From Schmidtea polychroa (lineage: Eukaryota): a stretch of DNA of 64,000 nucleotides. The notes beneath the pieces were generated by a model that was not told the origin of the DNA, made no database searches, and was given only the letters and a program-made list of their open reading frames with translations. Each line of letters opens with the position of its first letter. The first letter of the stretch is position 1. Shown here piece by piece: positions 11,406-63,269 of the stretch. The translations under genes were made by a program, and so were the position numbers. The stretch lies in contig CM097885.1 of the NCBI GenBank assembly GCA_044892525.1, forward strand, positions 15,192,001 through 15,256,000. The letters run 5' to 3'.

Positions 11406-11423
11406 GATCAGTCAATCCAGGTT

Positions 11424-14271: not shown

Positions 14272-14329
14272 GGTTGAAAATAATTAAAATGAAAAAACTA
14301 ATTATGTTTATACTATTATTCAAAAGCAA

Positions 14330-18084: not shown

Positions 18085-18425
18085 GGTCCAGATCATAAGA
18101 TAATGCCATCATTGAACAACCTAATGGTCGCATCTCAGTTGATTGGGTAGAAAGCTGCTTAACATCCGCAATAGAACGACATATTATGTCGCAAGGCATT
18201 TCATATCCATGTTTATATCTAAATCGAGCTGCTTCCATTTGTGCACGACATACTTGAGATCGATAATCAGGGATCATACCAGTCATAACACCTCCAGTAC
18301 TTTCAGTAATATTAAACAATCTTGTAGCTGAACTCTTCTCAATCATTTTATCTGGAACCTGTCTTTGTGTAGCTACTACATCACAATAATTGCATCGAAT
18401 ATCCACGGAAAGCAATCCACCACAT
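18085..18425 (-). pseudogene. PSMA6: Proteasome subunit alpha type-6 fragment (retrocopy-like)
   Basis: GGLLSV...TQRQVPDK...VMTGMIPDYRSQV.RAQMEAARFRYKHGYEMPCD...TQSTEMRPLGC matches PSMA6; the N- and C-terminal parts are missing and there are no introns in the segment. Confidence 0.8.
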
Positions 18426-30782: not shown

Positions 30783-31785
30783 AGTAGTATGATATGTCAC
30801 CGCCAGGCCATGTCACCGCCAGGCCATGTCACCGCCCGGCCACATATACCCCCTCCCCCCCGGGAAAATTTTTTTTTTAAATAAAAGGTCAAGGTCAAGG
30901 TCATTTATTTTTTTTTATTTAATTTTTTGTTTTAATTAAGTGGTCTGGCGGGCTCCTACTTTTTTTCATCCCAAAAATTAATGTTCCCGCCAACGGATTT
31001 TATTGGACGATACCTCATCTTAAAGCTCAGTCCAAGACCTTTCGAATGAGCTATAGGTATCTTATATATCTTTAATAGTTTTAATGTTATTAACATTTGA
31101 TGACCACCATCTTTTCAAAGTTAAATTATTATTATTTTCCAAAATATTGTTATGTGGCCTGGCGGGCTCCTACTATTTTCCATCCCAAAAATTAATGTTT
31201 CCGCCAACAGATTTTATTGGACGATAGCTCATCTTAAAGCCCAATGCAAGACCTTTCGAATGAGCCATAGAAGGTATCATCATCATTAATATTGCCAAAG
31301 TTATTAACATTTTACCAAAAATCATTTTCAAGGTCATATAATTATTAGTGGTCCAGCGGTGACCTGGTTTTCGTTTGCCCCAAAGTTATCGTTCCCATTA
31401 TCCGAATTTATTAATCGATAGCTTATTTTGAAGCTTAGTGCAAGATCTAACTATTGATATATAAATATTATTAATATAATTATTATTGGCAAAATTATTA
31501 ACGTTTTCCCGAGACCATTTTCAAGGTCATTTATTTTTCAAAATATTATTATTTCCAAGGTCATTTATTTTTTCAAGGTCATTCCCAAGGTCATTTATTT
31601 TCAAGGTCATTTATTTTTTCAAGGTCGCGTGACTCATAAAGGTCATTTTTTTTTCAAGGTCATTTTTTAATTTAATTTTTTGTTTTAATTAAGTGATCAT
31701 TAAATTTTTCAATGTCATTTATTTTTTCAAAATATTATTTTTTCAAAATATTATTTTTTCAAGGTCATTTATTATTATTATTATA

Positions 31786-31879
<94 letters not shown>

Positions 31880-34800: not shown

Positions 34801-36400
34801 AGGAGTCATAATAGAAATATGGTTATCATTTAACCAAATAAGGTGCTTATTAGTTAAAAATATATATTTATATAGGGTTACAATTCTTTTCTAATTTAAT
34901 TAGATGATCATTAGACGTAATATATCTTTGCGAGAAATTTAAGATGTTTGAGTAACCAAAACATGGATATTTTGTGCGATAAATTTATGAATATTGGTTA
35001 ATTTTGTTATTTTTAGTCATTTAAAATAATATTTAGCAAAGGTAATTTAGCAAAATATCATTGAAAGATTTATCCATCCGATAATAATATTCCTTCAATA
35101 GATTTTACCTTTAATATTCAACCGATTTAATTTCTAGAAATCTAATTAAAATCATAAAATTCCTTCAATAAAGATCAATTTTCTTTAGCCGTTGTCGATT
35201 TCCAACTTTTAAGTCAATATTTCTCAAGTTTTGTCACTGATGTCCCCACAATGAATAAAATAACTTCTTAAGTAAATAATTTAAAGCAATAACCTTTGAT
35301 ATCAATCCCAATTAATTCTAAAGATTTCAAATATTTCATTGTGAAAACCAAGTAAATTGATCATTAACCCTAAACGACTTAATAAAACAGTGGATAATTA
35401 ATAAAAAAAAAACTGGTTCTAAAACATAAATCTAAATTACTGTGCAATAACATTCATCACAACCTAATAAACCTCTAAAACGATATAATTTCACAGGAAC
35501 TATTATTAATTCATAGCTAAATACTGACTATTTCCCTTTAAAATTTACCAATAAGAACATTGTCAATTTAAATAGAGATTTCAAACATTTCCACCAAATA
35601 TTTCTATCATTTTAAACACCTTAAAAAACATCTATTACCATCTTAACCAACCGACTTTAATATATCAGACCTTTAATATATCAATTCTCTTAAAATCCAT
35701 AGAAAATTCTTCAAAATATGAATTTTATTTATTTGTTACAGACATCCTTCCATTGAAATAATTTAGTATCTAAATTCATGTAGTAAGAGCCCATTAAAAA
35801 AATCAAAATTTACTAAAATCAATATTTTCTACAAATATTTCACCACATTTACCATCAAATACCTAACTAGAAATGAAATATATCGATTGATCATAATTCT
35901 TCATCGATTCAGCTAATTATATAGCAATTATAACGTGATATATCTTTCAAAATCACAAATTTCAGTATATTTTACAATAATTTTTACAAAAATTAAATAA
36001 TAATAACTTGATTATTGTAAAAACTCTAATTATTAACCTAACTGTCATTAAAAATATTATTATTTAAAAGTAAATTTAAAAACAAGTCAATAAAATATAG
36101 CAAATTATCAAGAAATTAATTAAATTTGTCTTAGAATTAACACTAAAACGTTAAATTTCAAAATATTCTTTCAATTATTCACAAAAAGGTTAGTAATAAT
36201 GTTAGTAAAATCCCGCTAACTCTAAAAATTACCAACGAATTTAATGCTAAATAATAACCAAAAATTTGCCTAAATAAAACACACCAGTACCTTTACGACC
36301 AGTACCCTTACGAGCAGTACCAATTGTGAACAGTACCCATAGAGGGAGAAAATATCTTGTCGGATAAACTCAGAGTATATATAATAAAACGAATTAACAA
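30783..36400. mobile_element. Polinton element C: one terminus plus non-coding arm, second end not found
   Basis: Starts AGTAGTATGATATGTCACCGCCAGGCC with the same poly-C, CAAGGTCA and ~190-bp subterminal units as element B. About 32490-35625 is an inverted near-copy of about 55613-58770. The right boundary is approximate. Confidence 0.8.
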
Positions 36401-36939
36401 TAACTCCATCAAATTGAATCAGTCAAATTAACACAAATTTTGATAAAAAATCTTATTCTAAAATGGTAAGAAGCGTAAAGTCGAAAGATAATTTTAATAA
36501 CACCGAGATAAATTAACAATATTATTCTCAGGTGGTAAGAATCTTCATTAAAGTTAGGAAATTATTTATTATTCTGTGATAAATTAATAATAAACTTCAA
36601 AGGGGTTAAAATAAGTGTTAGAATAATTCATTATTGGATTAGGGAAGGTAAAATATTTTTGAAGTTATTATTTCTTTAGATTTTTAGATATTTTTCTGGG
36701 AAAAAATTCGAAAATCGTAAATTTTTATAACTTGTATAAAAAAATAATAATTTCATAGAATTACATAAAATGACAAAATTCGCCATATAAATGAGCTGGA
36801 TAAAGAACATTACAAAAACCTAAAAAACTACTCCGCTTCTTTCTTAAATGTCTTAAAAAAATAAATGTTTTTCGTGATTTCTTTATTTATTCATAGTTAA
36901 AAATATTAATCTAACTTACATTTTATATATTCCGAATGC

Positions 36940-40089: not shown

Positions 40090-40640
40090 ATGAGAATATT
40101 TCAATATTTAATATGTATTTTATTTTTATTTAAAAACTGTATATGCATTGCTGAACCAATTACGTTAGGCATAGCTAGTATCGTAGTCGGATTTTCTTCA
40201 ATTTATTACTATCAACGAAAAATATCTTGCGCCTTTTCTGAATGTTGTGATCCTCATTCGAAATGGTTACCAATGAACATAACAAGTAATTATTTATAAT
40301 AAATTGCCAGGTTTATTTATATTTTAATAAAGAATTAAAAGATGATATGAAAACTCATTTACATGGTCAACCTTTGGTTGAATCGGTTTTATCAAAGCAT
40401 ATTAAAGTAAATTAGTATATTGAAAGCAAATTTATTTATTAAATTTAGGCCCATATCTTTAACGATAAACCTTCTAAAGCCCTTCTTCTCTCCTTAAATG
40501 GAATGCCTGGAACTGGGAAAAATTTTGTCTCCTCCATGATTGCCAATGCAATATTTAAAAAAGGCATGAAAAGCAAATTTGTTAAATTATTTTTAACTTC
40601 AGTCCATTTTCCAATTGCAAAGAATGTGGAGGAATATAAA
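40090..40640 (+). CDS. Torsin-family AAA+ ATPase, exons 1-3 (40090-40285, 40333-40406, 40449-40640); remaining exons not found in window
   Basis: Signal peptide, ECC, N-I-T, LHGQPL, LLLSLNGMPGTGKNFVS (torsin Walker A GKN), KGMKSKFV and HFP...EEYK; GT-AG introns of 47 and 42 nt join in frame; donor GTATGT at 40641. Confidence 0.9.
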
Positions 40641-44438: not shown

Positions 44439-46925
44439 ATGGATTTACAAAATGAAGCTGTTTATTAACTTGTCGGACCTAATGGTAAGACCTAATATTG
44501 GACAAAACGTTTACAAGATAGATGTCATCTTTATTAATGATTTATATCAAAAAGACACCAAAGAAAAGGAATTTAATAATTTGTTTACAAAGATTTCTAG
44601 ACACGTTTAAGTTATTTTTATTACCAAAAACCTTTTATATCAAGGAGGAAATCATATAACCCCTTAATTTAATGTACATTATCTAAAAAGTTCAAAACAG
44701 ACTAGACAAATGAAAATTCCACGGAGCTCACTGTATTTTACTTCATTGCTTAAAGCCCTAAAACAATCAAGAATGACAATTTTACAATCATTCCCTACAT
44801 TTGTGATTGATTATTTACTGGATATTGTAATGGAAGTTGTATATGTTAAAGTAAATATTAACAATGGAAAGAAATACATTTTGAAAAAGCAACAAAAATC
44901 TCTTTTATCGCTTGCAAATAGTATAAAAAAGAATCAAATGAGAAAAATTGTGTATAAACAACATGGTGGATTTATAGCTGCATTGAATACCTCTTGCATT
45001 ATTTTTATTTGACGGAGCAGGTGTATCAGGAAGTCGAACCGATGCTGGGTGCTACTCCTTCATTACTGTATTTTAAACTTGATTTTAATTCAAATTGTTG
45101 CAAATTGTTGCAAAAGACCCAGGATATTTCGGTGGAGTCGACAGATTACAGAAATCATTCAAGAAATCAAAGAACGAGACAAAACATTAGAAACTCAGAT
45201 AAAATGAACAAAACTAGTTTTTACATGATCTTAACCAGCAATAACTGCCATTTAATCCATCCAAATAACGATGCAACTAAATTGATTGTTGAACTTCAAA
45301 ATCCAATCTATTTTAATGGTAATTGAAAAGTAGCATTTCTGGATTTTATATTTGTATACAATCTCTTTCCATTTTATAGTACATCAACAGCAACCAAAAT
45401 CAGAACATACTAAAGTAAAAATAGTAAAAGATATATATGTAATGATGGTTTATCAAACCGATAAAAATTCAACAATTTTATTGAAGGAAAATATTTATAC
45501 TTGCGTTGTTTGAAACGACAATTTCAAACGACAATGCTAAACGTCTTAGATTTACACGATTACATAATTACGTGATGAACATGTAGAAATACAACTTGAT
45601 ACTCTTCCACACACCGATACTCTAGTTTAATTCAAATTTCAACTTTGAGCATGTCTGCAGTTTTAAAGATGATTTATATATTACAGACCTCGATCAATTA
45701 CAAGTTTATTTATCACAACATTGTGCAAAGGTTTTCACGGTCATTAAACTGGAAAGACATTTTTTAAATTTCGATTAAGTTCTAATATTAGTCAACTTAA
45801 ATTTGACCAAAATTTGGTAAAAATATTAGGATTATCAAAAGAAATATATTTACAAAATGGACAAGTTAATGAAGAAACATAAAAATCGAAAATAATTAAA
45901 GTTCATCAACAATTGTTTATATATAGTAATATTATTGAATCGATAATTGTTGGTGATGTTAGTGTTCCTCTATTAAAATCAATATGGATTTATAAACATG
46001 AAAAAATGATGTAGTGCAAATTATAATGGAAAACGTGATTATGTATTTATCTGGTTCAACATCCTGTATAAACAATATAGAAATTAATATACGTGACCAT
46101 TAAATTTGTCAAAAGATTCATAAACTCATTTGACTTTACATTTCAAAAAGACAGATGTCTAATCTTTATATTATTTCACTTTATAGTGGTAGTCAAACAG
46201 GTGCAAAAATACCATATTTTGTGGGTAAGTAATATGAATCCGGATAAGTTGCAAACAATTGGAAGGTTTATTGCTAATTTTTTTAAAATATTGATTCTTT
46301 TGGCATGAAAACCGCAAAGGATGTGATAATGAAAGATATAAAAAATACTACCAACATTGAAAACACACACGATGAATGAAATTGGAAAATTGATTCCTAA
46401 TGCAGCAAAAAGTTCTAAACCAAATGAAACTAAAAAAACCTTTACCTTGAGTGTGAGTTGAGTCATCAGTTATGTCTTAATTCAAAACATGCGATTTATT
46501 CTATCAAATCCAAAGAAATTGTTGCTTAAGCAATAAGATTCATCTTCATTTTATAAAGAACAAATTTTTGGTGATAAACGTTTTCTAAATTTTATTCTTG
46601 TAACCTTTCAAACTGCATAATAGTTCACATATACAGAAGCTAACTCAAAGTTTGAACATTTTAGTATAACTTTATATAACTTTATCGAAACATTCTTTTC
46701 ATCGTGAAACATACACTCAAGATTTCGAGAATGTTCAAATATGCTGCGACATATATGTAGTCTATAGTTTGATATATGGGTTATTTAGACAACAATTTAA
46801 ATTGTTGAATCGACATTGTCGATTTTAAGAAATACCCGAAACATTTATTTTGGCTCCCGACTTTGATTAGAACGAATCTCAATTACCAAAAATGGTTATG
46901 TTGAGTTTATTAAACATTAATTGAT
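44439..46925 (+). mobile_element. Old decayed Polinton D, left part (ATPase, pX-like, penton, pVI-like and MCP remnants)
   Basis: MDLQNEAVY*LVGP, KQHGGFIAAL, FYMILTSNNCHLIHPNN, FYKEQIFGDKRF and ETYTQDFE, in the same order as element B; many deletions. Confidence 0.85.
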
Positions 46926-48381
46926 AGTAGTATGATTGGTCCCCGCCAGACCAGGTCCCCTCCAGACCACATATACCCCCTCCCCCCCCCCCCGGGAAAA
47001 AAAAATTTTTTTTTTTTAAATTTTTTGTTTTAATTAATTGGCCTGGAGGGGACACACTTTTTTTCATCCCAAAAATTAATGTTCCCACCAACGGATTTTA
47101 TTGGACGATACCTCATCTTAAAGCTCAGTCCAAGACCTTTCGATTGATCCATAGAAGGTATCATTATCATTAATATTGACAAAGTTATTAACAATTGATG
47201 ACCACCATCTTTTCAACGTTAAATTATTATTATTATTGAAAATATTATTAATTGGCCGGGCGGGGACATACTTTTTCTCATCCCAAAAATTAATGTTCCC
47301 ATTATCCGAATTTATTAATAGATAGCTTATTTTGAAGCGTAGTCTAAGACCTTTCAATTGAGCCATAGAAGGTATCATCATCATTAACATCGGCAAAGTT
47401 ATTAAAGTTTTACCGAGACCATTTTTCAAGGTCATTTATTTTTCAAAATATTATTTTCAAGGTCAAGGTCAAGGTCAAGGTCATTTATTTTTTTTCAAGG
47501 TCATTTATTTTTTCAAGGTCATTTATTTTTTCAAGGTCATTTATTTTTTCAAGGTCATTTATTTTTTCAAGGTCATTTATTTTTTCAAGGTCATATTTTA
47601 AAATTTAAATGTACAGAGTTCCCGACAACGATAATTATTCAACGATAGCTCATTTTAAAGCCCAATGCAAGACCTTTCGATTGATTCATAGAAGGTATCA
47701 TCATCATTATTATTGACAAAGTTATTAACAATTGATGACCACCATCTTTTCAACGTTAAATTATTATTATTATTCAAAATATTATTAATTGGCCGGGCGG
47801 GGACATACTTTTTCTCATCCCAAAAATTAATGTTCCCACCAACGGATTTTATTGGACGATACCTCATTTTAAAGCTCAATGCAAGACCTTTCGAATGAGC
47901 TAATGAAGGTATCATCATCATTATTATTGACAAAGTTATTAACATTTTACCAAAAATCATTTTCAAGGTCATATAATTATTAAGTGGTCTGGCGGGCCCC
48001 TACTCTTTTTCATCCCAAAAATTATTGTTCCCATTATCCGAATTTATTGGACGATACCTCATCTTAAAGCTCAGTCCAAGACCTTTCGAATGAGCCATAG
48101 AAGGTATCATCATCATTAATATTAACAAAGAGAATGACTCACCCAATGACTCACCCAACGATGTCTAATATTTTTAGAACGATGACTCATCAAGGTCAAG
48201 GTCAAATTTTTAATAAAAGGTCAAGGTCATTTATTATTTTCAAGGTCATTTATTATTTTCAAGGTCATTTATTTTTTCAAGGTCATTTATTTTTTCAAGG
48301 TCATTTATTTTTTCAAGGTCATTTAATTTTCAAGGTCATTTATTAAAATAATTATTATTTTCTAAGTTTTTAGTTTCTAAG

Positions 48382-48462
<81 letters not shown>

Positions 48463-48545
48463 CTATCCGACAAAATATTCTGACCCCCTATGGGTATTGC
48501 TAGCAAGGGTACTGGTCACATTCAACATGTCGCAAGGGTACTGTT
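46926..48545 (+). repeat. Left terminal arm of element B (imperfect long TIR with ~190-bp subterminal units and CAAGGTCA arrays)
   Basis: Repeated CATCCCAAAAATTAATGTTCCC...AAGACCTTTCGAATGAGC units; inverted counterparts at about 59560-61252. Confidence 0.85.
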
Positions 48546-48615
48546 TACAAAATTACTGGTAAAAATATTCAAGACAAAACTTTCTAAATTCTAAATATTA
48601 TTCTTTAAATATACA

Positions 48616-48974
48616 CTAAAATTTATTAACACATTCACATTCATCATCTCCACAGTTCATAACATTTTCAACAACATGATCTATACAATCCCTATATACA
48701 CACGGTTCAGTATCCGTAAATTCCTCCATAGGTTCATCAATTTCTTGAATGCTTTCCTCATCATCTTGAGTGTTTTCTTCATCTGTTTCATCAAATTCCG
48801 AATCTTCACTCTCTGCTACCCAGTCTATATTTAATGCGTTTGTAACAGATAATATATCCGCCATTTTCACACCAGATATTTCTGCTAATTTTTCCAATAA
48901 AAAGTTTATTATAAATTCTAAATATTAAATAATTCGATAATTAACTAATCATATTAACCTTTTTCTGTAGTCAT
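48616..48974 (-). CDS. Spliced acidic, Cys-tailed hypothetical protein
   Basis: MTTEK|EFIINFLLEKLAEISGVK after removing the 41-nt GT-AG intron at 48958-48918; acidic linker; CVYRDCIDH...CGDDECEC. Confidence 0.75.
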
Positions 48975-49070
48975 TATTAGTATTTTAAAACTATAGTATA
49001 TATTTGTTTATAGAAAATATAGAATATAAGCGAAAACAAATATGACTAAATACATTTATTAAATACAACA

Positions 49071-49490
49071 TTAAAATAACTGTGAAAGTCTAGCAGACAT
49101 AATTTTCCAAATTGGAGAATACACATCATTATTATCAACTTTATATCCTTGGATTGTAATTGTTATATACCAATTTTCGTTTTCTTTGAAACTGATTTCA
49201 TCAAAGGAATCATAAAATTTTGCATATCGGTTGTTGAAAAATGCATTTTGATTGCATGATAGATTCGTATTCAACCTTTTGAAAACATCATCTATGGTTT
49301 TAATATCTAACATTGAAAGCGTGCCGGTTAAGAATTGAAATTGGGTAGGAATTAGCTTGATCGGTGACACCAATTTCATATTGATTTCTTCTTTTAAAAA
49401 ATACATTTTGTAGTTGTGGAACATTTGAACAGGTTGTACAAGTTCTGGAACTACTTTTGGTTTTTCAGTGCTTGAAATTTTCTTGGTCAT
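49071..49490 (-). CDS. Conserved hypothetical Polinton protein (139 aa)
   Basis: Intact ORF with a homologue in element A (13222-13825). Confidence 0.7.
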   Translation of the reverse strand: MTKKISSTEKPKVVPELVQPVQMFHNYKMYFLKEEINMKLVSPIKLIPTQFQFLTGTLSMLDIKTIDDVFKRLNTNLSCNQNAFFNNRYAKFYDSFDEISFKENENWYITITIQGYKVDNNDVYSPIWKIMSARLSQLF

Positions 49491-49598
49491 TGTGAATTAT
49501 GATTAAAATGAAATGGTATAGGGTTTTTATACCTATGACTATTGTTTATCATCCAATCAGATTGCAGTATGTTTTTGTTTTAATTGAATGATAAATAA

Positions 49599-50063
49599 TT
49601 AATTAAGTGATAATAAAAAATCTAAAAATTCTTTTCCTTCAATTATTGATTTAATTTCAGATATGATATTATCAACTATACTTTTGTATTCAATATTTTT
49701 TATTCCAAGAATTACTATCTTACCGCTAGCGAATATATTTACACACATAGGGTTATATTTTATATATCTCAAAGCTGGAAATAATTCTGGTTCATAAAAG
49801 CATGGTATTAATTTAGCTAATTTATTTAAATTACAAGAAAAACCTATATCGGAAGTTACGGTTATCGATTGTATTTCTAAATCATAAACATTATATTCAC
49901 TAGCTTTGCTTATTTCCTTACACCCCATAATTCTACATTTACCAGTTTTGAAATATATTATTGGATATTTATTACTTCTATTGATAAGTTGTTGTGGTTT
50001 CCCTATTGGAAATACCATTTTTGATACATCAGTTTTTGCCCTGTAATTTATATTTGAAAGCAT
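49599..50063 (-). CDS. TATA-binding protein (TBP)-like protein carried by element B
   Basis: FYEPELFPALRY...VNIFASGKIVILGIK and IIYFKTGKCRIMGCK; intact 154 aa; head-to-head with the ATPase as in element A. Confidence 0.85.
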   Translation of the reverse strand: MLSNINYRAKTDVSKMVFPIGKPQQLINRSNKYPIIYFKTGKCRIMGCKEISKASEYNVYDLEIQSITVTSDIGFSCNLNKLAKLIPCFYEPELFPALRYIKYNPMCVNIFASGKIVILGIKNIEYKSIVDNIISEIKSIIEGKEFLDFLLSLN

Positions 50064-50167
50064 TTTAATGAAATAATTTTAAAAACTTTGATATATATAG
50101 GTATTTAAAAACAGAGTTCATTTAAATTATCAATATAAACAATAATTATATAGTTTAAATTTAAAAA

Positions 50168-50806
50168 ATGGAATTACGAAATGATGCAGTATACCAAATC
50201 GTTGGTCCAAGTGGTAGCGGGAAAACTTTATTTGTTTGTAAATTACTAAAATCAAATTTGTTTAAAACAAAATTCAACAATATTTATTGGCATAGGGGCG
50301 CCGACGAAGAACACGGATTGACGCAATCAAGTTTCTGTCAGTTGAAAAACATGAAAATAGTAAAGGGCTTTGATAAAAACTGGTCAAGTCGTTTGAAGAA
50401 AGATGATGTCATCATTATCGATGATTTGTATCAAGAAGCCAATAAAGAAAAGGACTTTAATAATTTATTCACAAAAATCAGCAGACATGTTGGTGTAACA
50501 GTTATTTTCATAACACAAAATCTATTTCATCAAGGTGGTGCACATCGAACACGTAATTTAAATGTACAATATTTAGTTATTTTCAAGAATCCTAGAGATG
50601 CAACTGTCATTGATTTTCTTGGACGACAAGCATACCCTAATAACCGTAATTTTCTTATCAGTGCATTTCAAGATGCCACGAAAATACCGCATGGGTATAT
50701 ATTTCTCGATTTCACACAACAATGCCCTGATGATATACGCGTAAAAACAGATATTTTCAACCCAAAAGGTGCCATGGTATATAAACAAAGTTCAAAACAA
50801 AGTTGA
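50168..50806 (+). CDS. A32/FtsK-HerA family DNA packaging ATPase
   Basis: GPSGSGKT, IIIDD, SRH...ITQNLF, RTRNLN.QY...FKNPRD and HGYIFLD. Confidence 0.93.
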   Translation: MELRNDAVYQIVGPSGSGKTLFVCKLLKSNLFKTKFNNIYWHRGADEEHGLTQSSFCQLKNMKIVKGFDKNWSSRLKKDDVIIIDDLYQEANKEKDFNNLFTKISRHVGVTVIFITQNLFHQGGAHRTRNLNVQYLVIFKNPRDATVIDFLGRQAYPNNRNFLISAFQDATKIPHGYIFLDFTQQCPDDIRVKTDIFNPKGAMVYKQSSKQS

Positions 50807-50819
50807 AAACATATAAATC

Positions 50820-51308
50820 ATGTTTTCAAAAACAAGGATATCGGGTAAAAAACAACCAAAAGTTCCACCAACAACTAGTTATACTCCATCTAAAGATCTT
50901 ATTACAGAAAATTTTCCTGCAATGAATCTTATTTCGAAAAATCCTAAACCAAAAAGTAAAACCACTAAGAAAGTAAAAGTTGTTAAAAATCATCGGAGTT
51001 TCCCGTTTTTCAATACATTGTTAAAGGCACCAAGTATGAAAAGAAACAGTATTTTGCAATCTTTTCCAAATTATGTTGTCGATGATTTACTCGATATTAT
51101 ACTTAAAGTAGTCAAAGGCAAGATTAAAATCAGTAAATCTAAAAAGCAATTATTGAGTAAACATAGGAAACCTTTGCTATCATTAGTAAATAATAAAAAT
51201 CGTCAACAAATGAGAAAAATTATATATAAACAACAAGGGGGATTTATCGGTGCATTGATACCTTTAGCAATATCATTATTAGGTGGAATAATAGGAAGTC
51301 GATCATAA
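50820..51308 (+). CDS. Basic virion core protein, pX-like C-terminus
   Basis: Lys-rich; ends QQGGFIGALIPLAISLLGG, resembling adenovirus pX after a GG protease site. Confidence 0.7.
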   Translation: MFSKTRISGKKQPKVPPTTSYTPSKDLITENFPAMNLISKNPKPKSKTTKKVKVVKNHRSFPFFNTLLKAPSMKRNSILQSFPNYVVDDLLDIILKVVKGKIKISKSKKQLLSKHRKPLLSLVNNKNRQQMRKIIYKQQGGFIGALIPLAISLLGGIIGSRS

Positions 51309-51369
51309 ACAATGGGTGCTAATCCTTCATTACCAGACATTAAATTTAATATTAAATCTTCTTGTTGTA

Positions 51370-52425
51370 ATGGAGAAGATTTGGACGAACCCGGAAGACG
51401 AAGCCGGTTTTGGTGGAGTGGCAAAATTAAGGAAAAGAGTTCCGAATTCGAAAAAGGAAACTCAGAAGTGGTTATCAGACCAGCTTGCGTACAGTTTGAA
51501 CAAACCAATGCAGAAACGATTCCCAACAAGAGCATATAAAACATATGGAATAAATGATTTATGGCAAATGGATTTGATGGAGATGATACCCTATTCGAAA
51601 ATTAACAATGGGTATAAATATATTTTAACATGTATTGATGTATTCAGTCGGTTTGCCCGAGCAATACCCGTCAAGGCAAAATCTGCAGATGAAATGTCCA
51701 AAGCTGTTAATCATTTATTTAAAGATGGACATCCTAAAAACTTGCAAACTGATTTAGGTATTAATATTATTATTTTTATTATTATTATTATTATTTTAGG
51801 TAAAGAATTCTAAAACAGTAAAGTCAAGCAAATCCTCATTAAATTGAAAATAAACCATTACTCAGTACATTCTCAATACAAAGCTGCTCATGTTGAAAGA
51901 TTTAACCGAACTTTGAGAGATAGATTAAAGAAATTATTCGTGCATCAAGGTAATAAAAAATGGGTATTGGTTTTACCAAAAATAATAACCAGTTATAATC
52001 ACTCATCACATCAAGGACTGAATGGATTAAGGCCGATTGATATCACGTCAAAAACAATCTATTCTAAAAAACCTGAAAAAATTACAAAACCGAAATATAA
52101 AGTAGGTGACCATGTTAGAATTAGTAAAATTAGTGCATCACCATTTATTAAAAATTTCGATACAAATTGGAGTGATGAAGTCTTTGTAATTTCAAAAATA
52201 AATACTAAACAGAATCCTGTAATGTATGTCATCAAAGACGATGATAACAATATTGTACAAGGAAAATTTTATGAACAAGAATTACAAGTTATTCCTCCCC
52301 CAAAAGTATTTAGAATTCAGAAGATATTGAAAACTAAAAATAAAGGCAAGGATAAACAATACTATGTCAAATGGCATGGTTATCAAAACCCATCATGGAT
52401 ATCAGAAAAGGATCTAGTAAAGTGA
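51370..52425 (+). pseudogene. Retroviral-type (rve) integrase with C-terminal chromodomain; 42-nt intron-like insert and one premature stop
   Basis: WQMDL, IDVFSR, LQTDLG|KEF, VERFNRTL (DDE); chromodomain IQKIL...YYVKWHGY..PSWI; GT-AG at 51758-51799; TAA at 51811-51813. Confidence 0.9.
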
Positions 52426-53438
52426 ATTTTTATACTATTTTACCAAGCAATAGTTGCCCGCTTATTCATCCAGATAATCAAGCCAGTAAATTCATGGTCA
52501 ATCTCCAGAATCCGATTTCTTTAAATGGTGACTGGGAAGTTGCACTGCAAGATTTTACATTCGTGTACAATACATTCCCATTTTATAGTCAATGTAAGAT
52601 TGATTTCAAAAGGAATGCTATGAAAACATGTAGTGGTATCTTTATTATCAGTAATTATGATAAAACATATCATATTCCGAATCAAATATTAGATCAGCAT
52701 TGCACTATGTTTTACAAGGATGGATTAAATATCAGTTGTGATTTTAAACCATTTACAATAACATTCGAATATATTGAAGATGCCAGACGAATGGGCTGCA
52801 ATAAGTTGAAAAATGAAGTTATGGAAACAGAATATTTATTACGCTTTGATCTATTTGAAGCAAACAGTGTAATGAGAGAAGAAATCAAAATTTCAGTGTC
52901 GTATAATAATGAAGTTGAAGAATCATTCACCTTCGCTGACGAATTATATATTGATAAACTTGATGTGTTACTTAAATATTTAAAGTATAATTGTTCACAC
53001 ATATTTAAAAGTTTGGATATTGTGAAAGATTTGTTATTTACCTTCAGTTTGAATGATGACATTTGCGAAGTTACATTTGATAAAAATTTGACAAATACAC
53101 TTGGATTAGAGAAGCAGCAATATCGGGAAAAATCGGCTGGTATACGTAAACCAAGAATACTTGAACATCATCAACAAATGTTCATATATACTAATATTAT
53201 TGAGCCTATAATAGTTGGTGATTCCAGTGTTCCTCTATTGAAATCGGTGTGGATTGGAAAATATGAACATGATGAAGTTGTCAATATAAATATAGATAAT
53301 CCCATGTATTTACCAATTTCAAGCTCATGTATAAACAATATAGAAATAAATATTCGTGACGATAGTGGAAAACTTATAAACTTCCCAAAAGACTCAAAAA
53401 CTCATTTGACACTACATTTTCGTAAAGTAGATGGCTAA
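52371..53438 (+). CDS. Minor capsid protein (penton, single jelly-roll)
   Basis: FYTILPSNS...PDN.ASKF.V.L..PI.L.G.WEVAL at the N-terminus and IYTNIIEP.IVGD...PLL...Y.P...I.I.IRDD.G...LHFR at the C-terminus, typical of Maverick penton. The true start is probably near 52422. Confidence 0.85.
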   Translation: MAWLSKPIMDIRKGSSKVNFYTILPSNSCPLIHPDNQASKFMVNLQNPISLNGDWEVALQDFTFVYNTFPFYSQCKIDFKRNAMKTCSGIFIISNYDKTYHIPNQILDQHCTMFYKDGLNISCDFKPFTITFEYIEDARRMGCNKLKNEVMETEYLLRFDLFEANSVMREEIKISVSYNNEVEESFTFADELYIDKLDVLLKYLKYNCSHIFKSLDIVKDLLFTFSLNDDICEVTFDKNLTNTLGLEKQQYREKSAGIRKPRILEHHQQMFIYTNIIEPIIVGDSSVPLLKSVWIGKYEHDEVVNINIDNPMYLPISSSCINNIEINIRDDSGKLINFPKDSKTHLTLHFRKVDG

Positions 53439-53793
53439 TTCCGATATTATTAGTATGTATAGTGATAGCCAATCTGGCGGTGAATTACCATATTTTATTG
53501 GTAAACAGTACGGATCAGGTTGGTTAAAAACAATAGGGAGATTTGCACTTCCCATTCTTAAACGTATTGGTAGTTTTGGCATGAAAACTGCAAAAGATGT
53601 GATTATGAATGAACAGAAAATATTACCATCCCTAAAAACAAATGCTTTAGCGGAGTTAGGGAAGGTTCTACCTGGAGTTGCTGGTATGTTTCAAAAAGAT
53701 ACACCTCCAGTCCCAGCTCCAAAACGTAAAGGGCATGGAATATCGCGTATAAACAAACGAATGAAAGGACATGGAACTATATTTGCAAAATGA
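53431..53793 (+). CDS. Small virion protein with QxGG/QxGxG sites and amphipathic helix (pVI/'cupiennin'-like)
   Basis: QSGG...FIGKQYGSGWLKTIGRFALPILKRIG; located between penton and MCP. Confidence 0.7.
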   Translation: MANSDIISMYSDSQSGGELPYFIGKQYGSGWLKTIGRFALPILKRIGSFGMKTAKDVIMNEQKILPSLKTNALAELGKVLPGVAGMFQKDTPPVPAPKRKGHGISRINKRMKGHGTIFAK

Positions 53794-55013
53794 TTTGTGG
53801 TAAATCCGAATTATGTATATTTGATAGACCATCGCCCCAGGCAGTAATAGAATTTGGTGCCTTTGAGGAAGTTTTTCCTATGAATTCAATTACTGATAGT
53901 AGAAATGATATCGAGTTTTATATTAATGGTTCGCAAACTGAATATTTAGATTTGAACGATACTTTATTGACTGTTCAGATCAAGGTTGTAGATAAAGATA
54001 GAAAGGTTTTGGATGCCAATGCGGATGTATTACCAAACAATTTCATGTTTCATACTCTGTTTAAAGATGCAGTGTTGGGATTTAATAATATCAAGATTGA
54101 GGGTGGAAATAATACATTCATTCACAAGGCTTTGATAGAAACTATTTTAAATTACAATTCAGATACTAAAAATACCTGTCTTACACCTATGGGTTATGCA
54201 GCAGCAGATGATGAAAGAAAAAAGTGGGTTAAAGGCTCAAAAGTATTCACTATGTGCTCATCATTACAACTTGATTTTATGGATCAACCGAAATATTTAC
54301 TACCGGGAGTTAATATACATATTAGACTGAAAAGATCTGATTCTGCATTGTCTCTTACTAGTGCAACTGGTGCACCAATATGTCAATTAGTTGATGCAAA
54401 ATTATTGGTGAGAAGAGTTCGAGTAGACCCGTCAGTATTAGCTGGTCATCAATTGGGGCTTAATTCAAAACATGCAATTTATCCTTTAAAAACAAAGGAA
54501 ATTGTACAATTTGCTATTGCTAAAGGTGCTTCATCATTCTATAAAGAACAAATATTTGGTGACAGAAGAATGCCTAATTTTATTCTGGTAACATTTCAAA
54601 GTGAAACGCAATATAATGGATCGTATACTGCTTCCAGCTCAATTTTCAAAAATTTTGGTGTTACTTCATTGACTTTATCGAAAAATACTGATTATAGAGA
54701 AACATATACTCAAGATTTCGAGAATGATAATTACTGTGCGACATATATGCAGAGTATTGTTAGAAATCTGGGTTATTTAGATAAAAACTTGAATTGCGGA
54801 ATAACTCTTGAAGAATTTAAAAGCAAATACCCATTTTTCACATTTGTTCTAGCTCCCGATTTTGATTTAAATCAGAGTCAATTACCACAAAACGGGAATT
54901 TACGACTGGATATAAAGTTTGCAAAGGCCATTACTGAACCAGTACATGTTATAATATATGGAGTATTTGAAAATGAAGTTCAAATTACTGCAAATAGAAC
55001 CGTGCTAGTATAA
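53790..55013 (+). CDS. Major capsid protein (double jelly-roll, hexon-like)
   Basis: KSELCIF N-terminal motif, IEF.I.G...EYLDL, QPKYLLPGV.I.IRL.R and G.LRLDIKF; intact 407 aa. Confidence 0.88.
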   Translation: MICGKSELCIFDRPSPQAVIEFGAFEEVFPMNSITDSRNDIEFYINGSQTEYLDLNDTLLTVQIKVVDKDRKVLDANADVLPNNFMFHTLFKDAVLGFNNIKIEGGNNTFIHKALIETILNYNSDTKNTCLTPMGYAAADDERKKWVKGSKVFTMCSSLQLDFMDQPKYLLPGVNIHIRLKRSDSALSLTSATGAPICQLVDAKLLVRRVRVDPSVLAGHQLGLNSKHAIYPLKTKEIVQFAIAKGASSFYKEQIFGDRRMPNFILVTFQSETQYNGSYTASSSIFKNFGVTSLTLSKNTDYRETYTQDFENDNYCATYMQSIVRNLGYLDKNLNCGITLEEFKSKYPFFTFVLAPDFDLNQSQLPQNGNLRLDIKFAKAITEPVHVIIYGVFENEVQITANRTVLV

Positions 55014-55040
55014 ATGTATACAGAAATATAGAAAGTTGTC

Positions 55041-55424
55041 ATGGAGTAAGTTTTTCAATACTGTTTAATTTATTAAAGTAGTTCTGTTCAGGTCAATAGA
55101 ATTGGAAAACAGATATTGGGAAATGAATTTGTAGGAGTTTTTCCTCTCGATAAAATCCCATATTTGAGCAATAATCAAGCCATAATCGTCAATACTCAAT
55201 CGTCTCATCTTGGTGGAGAACATTGGATTGCTATATATGTGAAACCTAGTAATATATTCGTGTTCGATCCTATGGGTTTCTATTACCCTGCTTTGTTGGT
55301 ATCAAAACTACAAACAATGGGGAAACCTATTGTATATAATAAAACAATGTTTCAAAATCCCTTGACACAAACATGCGGTCAACATTGTTTAGCTTGGTTG
55401 TTGTATAAAAAATTTGATGATTAA
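55041..55424 (+). CDS. Adenain/Ulp1-like maturation cysteine protease (probable 33-nt intron at 55046-55078)
   Basis: FVGVFPLD, IVNT, GEHW, FDPMG and Q...TCGQHC catalytic residues; splicing gives the start MDSSVQVNRIG. Confidence 0.88.
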
Positions 55425-55449
55425 TAAATGTATTTTGTATCCTTTGTTG

Positions 55450-55494
<45 letters not shown>

Positions 55495-55561
55495 TTTTAT
55501 TAATATTATTATTATTTTATTATTATTATTATTATTAATATTATTAATATTATTATTATTA

Positions 55562-55609
<48 letters not shown>

Positions 55610-58600
55610 GATTTTTAAGGGGGTGTTTAAAATGGTAGAAATATTTGGTGAGGAATCGGTTATGGTGGAAATGTTTGAAATCTCTATTTAAATCGACAAT
55701 GTTCTTATTGGTAAAATTTTAAAGGGAAATAGTCAGTATTTAGCTATGAATTAATAATAGTTCCTGTGAAATTATATCGTTTTAGAGGTTTATTAGGTTG
55801 TGATGAATGTCATTGCACAGTAATTTAGATTTATGTTTTAGAACCAGTTTTTTATTAATTATCCACTGTTTTATTAAGTCTTTTAGGGTTAATGATCAAT
55901 TTACTTGGTTTTCACAATGAAATATTTGAAATCTTTAGAATTAATTGGGATTGATATCAAAGGTTATTGCTTTAAATTATTTTACTTAAGAAGTTATTTT
56001 ATTCATTGTGGGGACATCAGTGACAAAACTTGAGAAATATTGACTTAAAAGTTGGAAATCGACAACGGCTAAAGAAAATTGATCTTTATTGAAGGAATTT
56101 TATGATTTTAATTAGAAATTAAATCGGTTGAATATCAGTTAATCTATTGAAGGAATATTGTTATCGGATGGATAAGTGATATTTTGCCAAATTACCTTTG
56201 CTAAATATTATTTTAAATCACTAAAAATGAGAAAATTAAGCACTATTCATAAATTTATCGCACAAAATATCCATGTTTTGGTTACTCAAACATCTTAAAT
56301 TTCTCGCAAAGATATATTACGTCTAATGATCATCTAATTAAATTAGAAAAGAATTGTTACTTTATATTTTTAACTAATAAGCACCTTATTTGGTTAAATG
56401 ATAACCATATTTCTATTATGACTCCTTTAAATATTTTTGCCTCAAACAAATTTACTCCAAATGATAAAGAATTTAAAATTATCAATGAATAAAGACCATG
56501 TTTTTCTCATATTATTAACTATTGTAACGAACATTAGATGAATAAATTAATTTTTGCTTTAAATGACTACAAAGTTAACCAATAAATTAGTCGCTCGACA
56601 TAAGTGTAAAGTTACATTTAAAATATTCACAAATTTCTGATTATCTTACCTAAGAATTTCTAAATGATTAATATTGCGACATGTTGAGTGTGACCAGTAC
56701 CCTTGCTACCATTACCCAAAGGGGGACAGAATATCTTGCCGGATAAACTCGGAGTATATGGTCTTTATTGATATATCAAAATACTGTTATTTATAAATTA
56801 ACTAAAAATACTCAAAAATACTATATTATTTTACTGAATGATACCTTAAATGTTTTTAATATACATATTTCTAAAATAAATCAACAGTTCAAACCAACAA
56901 CATGTATGGATGACCACCCATTGTTAATTTATTTCCAGTGTCACGTCCCTCAAAAATACCGTGAGTGTTTTAACAAAACTGAGCTAAAAGAAACTTTCCA
57001 GATAACAACTCACCTGAATGTTTTGAACAAAAATGAGCAAAATTGAGAACAAACGATTAGATGGCGATTAACTTCTGGCCACATCCCTAACAACATGAAA
57101 ATTAAGATTTTAATTATTGAATTCGTTGTTTTCTGCCTGGAAATACTAACAGAATATTTTTTAATTCAAAGAATCTTCATTATAAATTTTTGAATTTAAA
57201 AAATTAAATGAAGGATATATTAAATTTACAATACATAATATTATATAAAATTATACTGTATTTATTAATAAATTTAGAATACATAAAATTATAATATTAT
57301 AATATTTTATAAAGTTATACTATATAATAATGTTTAAATATGCTTAAATAACTAAATTGTTTAAATATTTTTAAATAACTAAATTTAAATTATTTAAATA
57401 TAATTCTGATATAACGTTATTTCTTTCGTTTTAGTATCCATAAAGTAAGTAAATAAAGAATTTACTACAATATTTTAATTATTTTACTTAGTAATGAAGA
57501 AAATGAATTATATAATTATGAAGAAGATGAACAAAATGGTGAAACACTAAATGACTTATGTTCTGGATTTAGAGATTTCTTATTAAAACATGAATTATAG
57601 AAGAAAATGAACCAGACAAAATGGTGAAACATTGCTATGTTCGGGATTTCTTAAATGAATTAGCTGATTGTAGGTGTCCTTCAACATGAATTATCAGACT
57701 TAAATTATGTAAACTTTCAACGAATGTCAAGAAAAATGGGAAAACCGATGTTTTAGCAATTAGATATTGTAAAGTACTACCTGAAGAATATTATTATTAA
57801 TGTAAGACATGAATTAATTCTTTAAAATAAATATATTATATTTAGGTATCTGTGTTTTATGGTGGGAAATGTCATTGAAAAAGTATACCACAAATAACAG
57901 TTGCCTAATAGTCAGGTAGAATTTAATTTCTGACGATAAAATGATAAATAACATCTGTAAGTTAATGGCTTTTAAATTTTAGCAATGATAGTTGACACCG
58001 CATCAGAAACTAAGAAATACGTCCAATTTGCAAGATGTATTCCAAATGGCCTGATGGAGATGATAATTTTGAGATAGATTACCAGCAGAAGAGCGAGAAA
58101 AATTTGTAAATTAAATATAATAGGGTTGGGTGGGTCCTCTTTATCCCTTAATTAATATATATTTACAAGCTGATCGTCGTGGTAGGCGGTTGTAATCCAA
58201 CTAGTGGGAGGCCTCTGTAAATATATATTTGTGTTAGTGAAAACATTAATTAATTTGGTTATATTGCCAATGACGCATGTATTTTGAAATTATACGTTTC
58301 GAATGTGCTGGTAGTTGACTACCCATGCTAGGCGTAATGTTCCGTACGGAAAGCTATAATGCCCAGGTTCTTTTGACCCCACTTGGGGGAGGCACAGACG
58401 ACCCTTGTGGACGCGAACAAATATCCACCGTGTCTTTCAGGCACAGATATTTGGTCACTGCTCATTAGACCTGGCAATACTAAATGCATAAACTTTGCCT
58501 TGTCCTCTCTTGTCTTGATTTTTATCGTTTAAATAGTATGTGTGATAGGTTTTATTTACTAACCATAATTAATATACCCTTGCGATATGTTGAGTGTGAG

Positions 58601-58838
58601 TAGTACCTTTGTGAGCAATACCCATAGGGGGACAGAATATTTTGTCGGATAGACTATGAGTATATACACCCATGTTAAACAAGGTATGTGTATATAGAAT
58701 GTGTGTGTAAAATTATCGCTCCTTATTGACAACTTCCTGTAAAGGCAAACACAGAATACTGCAAACATAATAATACTCTACCCCATAACTTAGTATGTAA
58801 AAATTATTTAAGGTTTTTTCACTAATAATAATAATAAT

Positions 58839-58914
<76 letters not shown>

Positions 58915-58916
<2 letters not shown>

Positions 58917-59420
58917 GTTTAATGGGTTGTATATGTGTGTAAAAAATATTTGAGGTTTTCACGAATATTGATAATAATAATGGTTTATGAGTGTTTTTAT
59001 GTTTTTGACTAATATTTGCAATAATAATAATGGTTAATGGGTTGTGTGTGTGTGTGTGTAGAAAATATTTTAGGTTTTCACTAATATTGATAATAATAAT
59101 TGTTAATGGGTTGTGTGAGTGTAAATAATATTTTAGGTTTTTGACTAATATTTGCAATAATAATAATAATAATAATAAGTTTAATGAGTTGTATGTGTGT
59201 GTGTAAAAATATTTTAGGTTTTTAATATTGATAATAATAATAATAATGGTTTATGGGTTGTGTGAGTAAACCATATTTTAGATTTTTCACTAATAATGAT
59301 AATAATAATGGTTAATGAGTTGTGCATGTGTGTGTGTAGAAAATATTTTAGGTTTTTAATATTGATAATAATAATAATGGTTGAGGGGTTGTGTGTGTAA
59401 ACCATATTTTAGATTTTTCA
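58915..59420. repeat. About 60-bp minisatellite with (TG)n and (TAA)n inside the right arm of element B
   Basis: Repeated TTAATGGGTTGTGTGTG...AAATATTTTAGGTTTT...AATAATAAT; flanked by long (TAA)n tracts. Confidence 0.85.
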
Positions 59421-59425
59421 TTAAC

Positions 59426-59490
<65 letters not shown>

Positions 59491-60134
59491 TTAAAACTTT
59501 GAAAATAACATCTTTCGCGCGGATGTTAATATCATTCCCAATAATAATGATGATAATAATATTTATATATCAGTAGATAGATCTCGCACTGGGCCTTAAA
59601 ATGAGCTATAGATCAATAAAATCTGTTGGTGGGAACATTAAGTTTTGAGCAAACGAAAACCAGGAGCCCGCCAGACCACTTAATAATATTTTTGAAAATA
59701 ATAATAATTTATGAGTCATCGTATGAGTCATCGAATGAGTCATCGTTCTAAAAATACATGATAATAATAATAATAATAATAATAATATTCTTGGGAGTTG
59801 TAATAATAATTCTTTGAAAATATCTTAGTCATTATTAATAATACTAATAATACCCTAGCGAGTTGTTGATTGTGAGCAGTACCCTGGTGATCAGTACCCT
59901 TGTGAGCAGTTCCCATAGGGGGACAGAATATTTTGTCGGATAGACTCGGTGTATATATGATAATAATAATAATAATAATAATAATAAAACTTAGAAAATA
60001 ATAATATGTAATCAACGATTTAAACAAAATTATATTATTACGTATTCTATAATTAAAACAGAAGAATTATATAATCAATGATTTAAACAAATTATATAAT
60101 CATCGATAATTAAAACAAAATTATTAATTCTAAA

Positions 60135-60510
60135 AATACTAGGCATCGTTCTAAAAATATGACGTAATCATTCTAAAAATAATAGGCATCGTTCTAAAAT
60201 ATTAGACATCGTTCTAAAATAAGAGGCATCGTTCTAAAAGTATGATGTAATCGTTCTAAAAATATTAGGCATCGTTCTAAAAATATTTGGCATCGTTCTA
60301 AAAATATTAGGCATCGTTCTAAAAGTATGACGTAATCATTCTAAAAATAATAGACATCGTTCTAAAAATATTTAGCATCGTTCTAAAAATATTAGGCATC
60401 GTTCTAAAAGTATGACGTAATCATTCTAAAAATATTAGGCATCATTCTAAAAATATTAGGCATCGTTCTAAAAGTATGACGTAATCATTCTAAAAATATT
60501 AGGCATCGTT
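60135..60510. repeat. About 20-22 bp tandem array containing ATGACGTAAT motifs
   Basis: Alternating AAAATATTAGGCATCGTTCT and AAAAGTATGACGTAATCATTCT units. Confidence 0.9.
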
Positions 60511-61370
60511 GGGTGAGTCATTGGGTGACTCATTCTCTTTGTTAATAATAATGATGATGATACCTTCTATCGCTCATTCGAAAGGTCTTGGACTGAGCTT
60601 TAAGATGAGGTATCTGTTAATAAATTCGGATAATGGGAACATTAATTTTTGGGATGAAAAAAAGTGTGAGCCCGCCAGATCACTTAATAATATTTTGGAA
60701 AATAATAATAATTTAACTTTGAAAAGATGGTGGTCATCAATTGTTAATAACATTAAAACTATTAAAGATATATAAGATACCTATAGCTCATTCGAAAGGT
60801 CTTGGACTGAGCTTTAAGATGAGGTATCGGTCAATAAAATCTGTTAACGAGAACATTAATTTTTGGGATGAAAAAAAGTAGGGGCCCTCTGGATCACTTA
60901 ATAATATTTTGACAAATAATAATAATTTAACTTTGAAAAGATGGTGGTCATCAATTGTTAATAACATTAAAACTATTAAAGATATATAAGATACCTATAG
61001 CTCATTCGAAAGGTCTTGGACTGAGCTTTAAGATGAGGTATCGGTCAATAAAATCTGTTAACGAGAACATTAACTTTTGGGATGAAAAAAAGTGTGAGCC
61101 CGCCAGATCACTTAATTAAAACAAAAAATTAAATTAAAAAAAAATGACCTTGACCTTGACCTTTTATTTAAAAAAAAATTTTTCCCCGGGGGGGGGAGGG
61201 GGTATATGTGATGCGGGGAGCTCCTGATCTGGATGGCCCACATCCTACTACTATTGATGTTTTCATTATTATCAAAAGTAACTGAAATAAACGTTTATGC
61301 ACACGTTTTATTAAATAACATTAACAAACGGTTTCCAACATGAACATAAAACTAAAAACAAGTATTTAGA

Positions 61371-61719: not shown

Positions 61720-62240
61720 ATCATCATTGTCAACAATATGTAAAACTTTTGTTCCGCCTCACCCAGACCCTTTATCATACTTATTTATTAAAGCCACATT
61801 TGACGATTTAAATGTGAAAAGTTGATAATTTTTTGACCCAAATCTCGTTTGTATGACTTTAGGTATTTCTAATACATTAAAAAAATCAAAGTAAGATTGA
61901 TGATTTATTTGTGTTTCCATTCTATCTAATACCTTTGGCTCGCATAGTTGTCTTTGGGCGAAGAAATATCCTCCTATCATAAAGGATTCCCCTATTTTCA
62001 TCATTAAATTTTCCTTTTCTTTTATTATACATAGGATGAAGCGGATTATAATTTAAGGCCTCTAATAATGTTTCCAATTTGAGAATTTTAATTTCCAAAA
62101 ATAATGAGTCGGTGCTACAGCTACTATGTTAATCTCACAATTGAACTGTTCCCGATACTTGTGAACTTGTTTATATTGGAGCTCATGCATTCTTAGTCTG
62201 AATAGGTCTAAAACTATTTCCCCGATATTCGATGGTCTAT
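61720..62240 (-). pseudogene. pPolB C-terminal remnant of old Polinton D
   Basis: RPSNIGEIVLDL.RLRM, KYREQFNCEINIVA and INHQSYFD...QTRFGSKNYQLFTFK match 15384-15971. Confidence 0.85.
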
Positions 62241-62242: not shown

Positions 62243-63240
62243 CAGCGGTGTCCAACAGAAATTTGATTGTAGCCACAATCGTCAATTTAGAAATTTTCAT
62301 TCGCCACATTAAAATAAATTTAAAACAAAATGTTTTATAATAGTTTTTTATTTTAATCAATTTTAGGAATTACACAAATTTTTTTAATAACATTAAACAC
62401 AAAATACAAAAATTATTTAATGTGATGCTTGGCAATTTTTTTCTTGCACAATACCCTTGAAATCTGGTGTAAACCTCACGCTAACTGCACATTTTAATTC
62501 TGCCTCCAAATTTTCATCACTAATATTGGATCGGTATTTTGATTTTATGAAAGTTACAGCTGAAAAAGTAGATTCGCAAACCCAAGTTGTTCCAAACATA
62601 CTCAATAGCTGAGTTGAGAACCACAAACTCATTTGACTTTAAGAGGCGTGTCCACATCATTAAAATAGATTCATCGTTTCTAGAATAATTGATCTGACTT
62701 TGAAGTAAATTCATATCTGCTTCAAAATCACGTCGGTCCAAACTTAGCAAATTCGCGATATCTTTAGACAACTCAGAATTGGTGATGTCAAAATGGAAAG
62801 GATCTTGCATCAGTTGAAAAGCAGGTCTAAATTTCTCAACATCAATAAAACGTTCTTCAAATTTTTCTTGTAGTTTCTGTAACCATCCGACATAACGCTG
62901 TATATTAAAATTGGTATCTTCTTTATATTTTTCCATATTATCGAAATGCGTGAAATCATAATCTTTTAACTGTGTCACAAAAAGTTTTAATTTAGAGACA
63001 AATTCTCGTATATACTGTGCCAAATCACATATTAGCTTTCCTTTTCCTTGAAGTTTTAAATTTAATTCATTAATATGTAACGTTATATCAGTGAGAAAAA
63101 TTAAATCGCATTGCCATTCCTTATTTTCTATTTCAGAAAAATTGATAAGCATTTCTTTTTCTTGAAGGAAATTTCGGATGGGATTTAATAATGATACAAA
63201 TCGTTCCAAAACTTTACCACGACTTAACCACCGAACATTT
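62243..63240 (-). mobile_element. Buster/Charlie hAT remnant (GTF2IRD2/ZBED-like transposase C-half) with 3' terminus
   Basis: VRWLSRGKVLERF, LIFLTDI..H.NELNLKLQG and FGTTWVCESTFS...KSKYRS; terminus CAGCGGTGTCCAAC preceded by GTCTATAC (nnnTAnnn target). Confidence 0.85.
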
Positions 63241-63269
63241 ATTTTTTATTAATAAATTCAAATATTGAT

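Follow-up and report, generated by a model that had tools for sequence, protein, structure and literature searches.

A polymerase-less Polinton of Schmidtea polychroa, a putative defective hybrid of a capsid gene block and a gene-less satellite arm

We describe element B, a Polinton in the genome of Schmidtea polychroa that lacks the DNA polymerase gene pPolB, and propose, with a probability of roughly one half, that it is a defective hybrid, in which a capsid gene block had, before insertion, become fused to the arm of a satellite through a TAT microsatellite, and which was integrated once or rarely with helper enzymes and is now dead. The element occupies positions 46926-61252 of a stretch of 64,000 nucleotides (GenBank assembly GCA_044892525.1, contig CM097885.1, positions 15,192,001 to 15,256,000 of the forward strand), which was analyzed at its full length, is free of N, and is referred to as the window; three further elements in the window are denoted A, C and D. 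Under the hybrid reading, the left arm and the 6.8-kb gene block of element B would derive from a high-copy Polinton family bearing a TBP gene, and the right 5.6 kb from a satellite like element C, which lacks genes and has Polinton ends. The join may have been made by template switching or by recombination at the TAT microsatellite while both parents were copied extrachromosomally by a helper pPolB, and the product would be a linear molecule with an AGTAGTA origin at both ends and no pPolB. An integrase, either that of the helper or the element's own before its stop codon arose, would have accepted this hybrid and inserted it into the old element D, after which decay would have begun. A hybrid without pPolB that was integrated would have been helper-dependent at least once. 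Element B functions like a non-autonomous Polinton derivative. It is real, defective and probably hybrid, and is best read as a product that arose once or rarely and is in decay, rather than as a propagating form.

The boundaries of the element are sharp. It starts with AGTAGTA and ends with TACTACT, and the hexamer ATTGAT abuts both ends (46920-46925 and 61253-61258, identified by sequence match), forming a 6-bp target site duplication (TSD); given the local composition, a matching hexamer is expected by chance in about 7-8 cases in 10,000. Both termini and the perfect TSD are therefore as the initial annotation of this DNA had described them. The left terminal arm (46926-48542, plus strand) consists of the AGTAGTA end, a C-rich/poly-A stretch, subrepeats of about 214 bp, TCAAGG arrays, a TTA tract and an inner boundary motif (48456-48542), whereas the outer right arm with the right terminus (58906-61252, minus strand) contains TAA/GT arrays, a 21-bp array of 18 units, 214-bp repeats and the TACTACT end. 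Homology between the terminal inverted repeats (TIRs) spans about 1.2-1.6 kb, with an identity of just 82-90%, measured over 45-1200 nt. The terminal 40 nt of the left and right ends differ by 13 edits in element B, compared to none in the neighboring element A. The latter is more decayed than element B, with frameshifts, truncated genes and large deletions, and yet its ends are identical over these 40 nt. The major capsid protein (MCP) of element B is within 7-10 residues of four siblings, and age therefore cannot account for the end mismatch; in a young element with unequal ends, the mismatch predates insertion. The shared TSD around mismatched ends suggests that element B integrated already in its present form.

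Element A (10520-16775) is a Polinton reduced by deletion to 6.3 kb; its two ends match, and it is flanked by a separate TSD, ATCTAA. Its integrase stub runs directly into the TIR, its capsid block is gone, and a small gene, orfA, is inverted relative to its orientation in element B. The pPolB of element A is the C-terminal half of the gene.

The origin of the right part is indicated by comparison with element C, a gene-less, Polinton-ended element (30783-36403, plus strand) that starts with AGTAGTA at 30783 and shares the right arm of element B; its right end was looked for and not found. The junction is a TAT microsatellite (55445-55617, with a 165-nt tract at 55453-55617), located 20 nt after the protease stop codon. 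The inner right arm (55608-58905, minus strand), which contains two further copies of the boundary motif, is 96.3% identical over 3182 aligned nt to positions 35631-32350 of element C, and the homology stops within the TAT tract, at 55608; element C runs about 0.7 kb past this junction, as far as a boundary motif in inverted orientation. The identity of the arm to element C exceeds that between the two ends of element B itself. Taken together, the mismatched ends and the 96% arm identity make two parents the simplest reading.

As judged from its sequence, the right arm behaves as non-coding. The initial annotation had placed a non-coding arm of about 5.8 kb from a TAT tract at 55445-55610; the arm and the tract are confirmed, with the arm measured at 5635 nt (55618-61252) and the tract extending to 55617. 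The longest frame in the arm has 99 codons, a length equalled by 20 of 200 shuffles. Between the arm and element C, there are 87 substitutions and 28 indels, of which 7 are multiples of 3; the control, in which 4 of 22 indels are in frame in the coding DNA of element B compared to element A, is uninformative because the latter is itself decayed. A search of the longest arm frame against 1.84 billion protein representatives yielded no diverged homologue, the two matches being a sibling arm copy and repetitive sequence. When the arms and spacers, translated in six frames as 199 pieces, were compared to 70 related loci from a scan of metagenome contigs, the sole match was the accessory gene orfB. 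The arm also contains a head resembling the 7SL/SRP Alu domain (58169-58216, plus strand), with one mismatch to the copy in element C; the latter copy matches Rfam RF00017 with 29.7 bits (E 3.3e-4), under the gathering score of 70, and the copy in element B is absent from the Rfam listing. Nine copies of the 85-nt boundary motif are found in elements B and C (31884-36366, 48456-48542 and 56674-59944), both within the arm and along the inner margin of every terminal region, and this motif is a candidate cis signal; in a search against viral contigs, it gave no matches. Element C sits inside a hAT-type transposase frame (29176-30782, minus strand).

The absence of pPolB from element B is real. 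The pPolB remnant of element A, used as a query, produced 327 matches, and 51 proteins of 1040-1449 aa among the 120 listed were combined in a profile, which was run on six frames of the window with stops represented as X. Within the window, this profile detected eight domains, located at 3156-3323, 14397-15974 and 61730-62238, including remnants scoring down to E 1e-6. On element B alone, it produced just three matches, all with negative scores (best E 1.2), and the best tblastn match had E 0.15. The claim that element B has no pPolB is thus borne out by a search that detects decayed pPolB elsewhere in the window, and a decayed pPolB hidden within the right arm is ruled out by the same search. 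One of the regions detected, at 3156-3323, is an isolated third scrap. A frame at 62520-63245 is not pPolB; it probably represents a piece of a hAT-type transposase, Pfam giving no informative match.

The place where pPolB could be expected is indicated by element D and by the related loci. The left part of element D (44494-46919, plus strand) contains decayed ATPase, core, penton and MCP genes, and element B is inserted at the end of its MCP remnant. To the right of element B, the profile identifies a C-terminal pPolB remnant of element D (61730-62238, minus strand), consistent with the earlier statement that pPolB of this element lies downstream of the capsid block on the opposite strand; a protease remnant of element D was looked for to the right of element B and not found. 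Among the 70 related loci, ten reach at least 1.5 kb beyond the protease, and seven of these carry pPolB there, on the opposite strand. In the other three, a TBP gene follows the protease and the sequence ends within 1.9 kb.

The integrase of element B is broken. The gene (51370-52425, plus strand), with rve and chromodomain assigned by Pfam, is interrupted within the catalytic core by an in-frame stop (51811-51813) that separates the second acidic motif from the ERFNRT region; a 42-nt GT-AG intron that keeps the frame is predicted at 51758-51799. All 13 related loci that contain both integrase halves have no stop and no intron there. Polintons are defined by two enzymes, pPolB and the integrase (PMC5499653). 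With pPolB absent and the integrase interrupted, element B is therefore a copy without both of these enzymes. Compared to an autonomous Polinton, it has the 6-bp TSD, the AG-type ends, the TIRs, a double jelly-roll MCP, an ATPase and a protease, and lacks pPolB and an intact integrase.

The gene block comprises ten open reading frames (ORFs), the longest frame having at most 427 codons. From left to right, these are orfA, orfB and TBP on the minus strand, followed by the ATPase, a basic core-type protein, the integrase, the penton candidate, a small protein, the MCP and the protease on the plus strand. The small acidic orfA (48616-48924) has no match in Pfam and has a homologue in element A, which is inverted there relative to TBP. 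The accessory orfB (49071-49490) is kept beside TBP in relatives (tblastn E 1e-14 to locus L002 and 7e-12 to L021). The short TBP-like gene (49599-50063) matches PF00352 with E 3e-16. A TBP gene is conserved in this Polinton lineage (in element B and in loci L001, L002, L021, L027, L028, L030, L038 and L059), although its place and strand vary: it is found upstream of the ATPase in closer relatives and past the protease in more distant ones. The packaging ATPase of the A32 type (50168-50806) is open, matches PF04665 (Pox_A32) with E 2e-7, and is 89% and 84% identical to two pieces in element A. The basic core-type protein (50820-51308) is open, keeps its position in relatives and has no match in Pfam; its C-terminus presumably resembles adenovirus pX. 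The small core-type protein (53431-53793) is an open ORF with a counterpart in related loci, and we assume a likeness to the amphipathic proteins of the adenovirus pVI type.

The open 407-aa MCP (53790-55013) is assigned to the double jelly-roll type by its structure model (pLDDT 86.5), for which a fold search finds capsid proteins of the same type from iridovirus, PBCV-1 and mavirus (E 9.6e-18 for the best match). This result was obtained by the fold search alone, the comparison to PDB sequences giving no matches, and a search of viral contigs with the MCP, as a single query and then as an alignment, gave no confirmed relative. The penton (minor capsid) candidate (52371-53438), also open, is identified by its position, with 27-43% identity in related loci; its look-alikes in the Atlas are Preplasmiviricota proteins at 0.97, a recognition value under the reliable range, and the single-sequence structure model reaches a pLDDT of 31 only, which gives no usable fold. 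Two penton-like genes stand in tandem at loci L019, L020 and L021. The adenain-type protease (55041-55424) matches PF00770 (Peptidase_C5) with E 1.2e-6; its frame has no ATG and is open given a predicted 5-nt first exon and a 33-nt intron (55046-55078). Element B had been called virion-complete, and it likely is: the ATPase, the MCP, the protease, the two small core-type proteins and the penton candidate are all open. The qualification is that the penton is a candidate by position and look-alikes, and that the protease needs a predicted short spliced leader. Adintovirus accessory genes are named after PMC8502044.

The coding block is genuine, and its family is present in very many copies, with numerous internal deletions. 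The MCP of element B is 97.5-98.3% identical to four near-full-length sibling proteins, the 7-10 differences being counted over 407 residues. Parts of the stretch are contained in 20 of the 24 public sequencing runs listed, which come from eight studies, with no RNA run among those listed. Four runs from four studies were mapped to 48456-55465, and all 30 bins were covered in each; it should be noted that the pieces were shorter than 700 nt, that the mapping passed over the intron region as repetitive, that the listing contains 24 of the 1956 loose ends, and that depth does not equal copy number. For one of these runs, X1, 78,125 contigs were placed on this segment, with 543 difference rows and 246 joints, most of which are skips. 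In 6 of the 40 difference rows listed from the 543, over 90% of the depth reads a letter other than that of element B.

Several signs of decay are compatible with a dead copy: the integrase stop, four private MCP residues, compared to 0-2 in each of the four siblings (five sequences in all, a small sample that tempers this count), and the six deviating rows of run X1. Other points weigh against the hybrid reading. The best match returned for intact, near-identical integrases is at most 82% identical, so the stop cannot be called private to element B. The relatives in which pPolB follows the protease have an MCP just 27-59% identical to that of element B, and in element A, the closest neighbor (ATPase 84-89% identical), the pPolB remnant is found on the TBP side, unlike in element D and the metagenome relatives. 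The direct parent of element B may thus have had pPolB on either side. It may also be that the ends of this parent already differed and that its arm was long, in which case a simple deletion would suffice; the capsid block that is still open also fits selection on a subfamily.

Such a deletion after insertion, which we regard as fairly unlikely, would start from a parent in which the protease is followed by pPolB on the opposite strand, a long non-coding arm and the terminus; after insertion of the whole element, a single deletion reaching the TAT tract would have removed pPolB and part of the arm, and the gene-less satellites would be fold-back offshoots of the same arm. This requires a single step that leaves the TSD intact, fewer than the hybrid does, and it is consistent with pPolB following the protease in 7 of 10 informative relatives and in element D, with the extension of element C about 0.7 kb beyond the junction, which implies a truncated arm in element B, and with the 246 joints, mostly skips, over the coding block in public runs; among vertebrate Mavericks, 96% are defective (PMC8097293). 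Conversely, it is unexplained why the ends of a young copy differ by 13 edits over their terminal 40 nt, unless the family has unequal ends, and the parent would have to be about 19-20 kb in length, with a non-coding arm of over 6 kb, and none was seen. Alternatively, element B could belong to an amplified subfamily without pPolB, for which complete Polintons provide copying and integration in trans, as reported for Pieris mannii. There is a precedent (bioRxiv 10.1101/2025.02.07.637071), the gene-less element C must move in trans, the capsid block is open in a very high-copy family (78,125 contigs placed in run X1), and a second TSD-flanked defective element, A, is present in the same window. 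Nevertheless, we consider this unlikely: just one copy of the structure was seen, and the ends of element B are not homogenized, whereas repeated panhandle replication, as known from adenovirus biology, is expected to homogenize ends. It is distinctly doubtful that element B is a member of a propagating, capsid-supplying Polinton form that arose by an arm swap with gene-less satellites and obtains pPolB in trans; at the far end, the system would be divided among molecules with capsid genes only, with the polymerase only and without genes, all having terminal origins in common and each complementing the others.

An assembly chimera, in which the assembler fused a coding copy and a satellite copy through their TAT microsatellites, could be suspected because the junction is a 165-nt microsatellite, the genome contains many tracts of this kind and many copies of either part, and the ends of element B are unequal. 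It is very improbable given that the 6-bp TSD matches across the junction (chance below 1 in 1000), that the flanks continue one old element, D, with the MCP remnant on the left and the pPolB remnant on the right, and that the window contains no N. We give the least credence to a segmented (bipartite) Polinton, with element B as the capsid segment and pPolB on another segment with shared terminal origins, similar to bidnaviruses. The morphogenesis genes and TBP are indeed open, with both DNA enzymes lost or broken, and there is a precedent in bidnaviruses, which have two segments and whose PolB and ends derive from Polintons (PMC4061559). However, capsid genes and pPolB are on one molecule in related loci, 9 of the 11 listed MCP matches on contigs of at least 14 kb likely share their contig with a pPolB match, judging from equal lengths, no complementary segment was seen, and element B shows signs of private decay. 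The initial annotation had left the choice between a helper-dependent (satellite or segmented) form and a recombinant that lost pPolB; the recombinant fits best, whereas a propagating satellite or segmented form has no positive evidence, with a single copy seen, a broken integrase, unequal ends and common deletion variants (the 246 joints).

With Polinton/Maverick elements (polintoviruses, adintoviruses), element B shares AGT-repeat ends, a 6-bp TSD, long terminal repeats, the rve gene, the A32-like ATPase, the adenain protease and the double jelly-roll MCP, and its gene order is conserved with the pPolB-bearing relatives L002, L006 and L021. It differs from them in the lack of pPolB, the broken integrase, the unequal ends, the 5.6-kb non-coding arm, the TBP gene and the predicted short introns. 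Kapitonov and Jurka (2006) reportedly described gene-less, non-autonomous Polinton derivatives. Derivatives of the C type have the same end type as element B, the shared arm with the boundary motif and the 7SL-like head, and helper dependence; unlike the gene-less palindromic derivatives, element B has ten ORFs and unequal arms, and is not palindromic. Vertebrate Mavericks are intronless (PMC8097293). Mobile polB-less polintons, namely those of Pieris mannii and a Gypsy-replaced group (bioRxiv 10.1101/2025.02.07.637071), are similar to element B in being TIR-flanked, with capsid genes kept, polB lost, foreign DNA present and complete relatives in their own genome. In these polintons, the foreign DNA is cargo of the LINE or LTR type, and lasting mobility is indicated by several related insertions; in element B, the foreign part is a Polinton-ended non-coding arm that supplies a terminus, and a single copy was seen. 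Polinton-like viruses also have a capsid module without pPolB, and mostly lack the rve integrase, with an SF1 helicase fusion instead (PMC5499653). Element B, conversely, has the rve gene, no helicase-type replacement and a pPolB-bearing lineage; a Pfam scan of its 11 main frames and four arm frames detected no alternative replication gene, such as an SF1 helicase fusion. In Bidnaviridae, as in element B, a PolB-less molecule, the second segment, shares its terminal structure with a PolB-bearing one, but these viruses have single-stranded DNA, a parvovirus-type capsid and a requirement for both segments (PMC4061559), and no partner segment is shown for element B. No hybrid of a capsid block and a satellite arm was found in the titles or abstract openings searched, a coverage that excludes most subscription papers and Repbase, and none is described in the passages searched of PMC10748475, PMC3014272, PMC6431247 and 10.1101/2024.01.15.575659.

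As a single defective copy, element B is modest, and its value is that of a footprint of a mechanism. A perfect TSD that encloses ends from two subfamilies suggests that Polintons share their place of copying with the gene-less satellites and can swap arms with them, and that the integrase tolerates hybrid ends. Should the junction be present at several independent sites, this would be a clear example, from an animal, of a Polinton that encodes a capsid and moves with no polymerase of its own, and it would be relevant to how polB-less polintons are mobilized, a question raised in bioRxiv 10.1101/2025.02.07.637071.

The window contains no tRNA genes. A 756-aa open frame (24683-26953) has no match in Pfam. 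A frame at 17951-18469 is a host-type gene piece of a proteasome alpha-6 subunit, the top PDB matches being alpha-6 chains (E 1e-36), followed by the next group at 9e-26, in keeping with an AT-rich eukaryotic host that is probably an animal. An exon at approximately 40420-40640 is presumably a piece of a host-type gene resembling a torsin-type ATPase.

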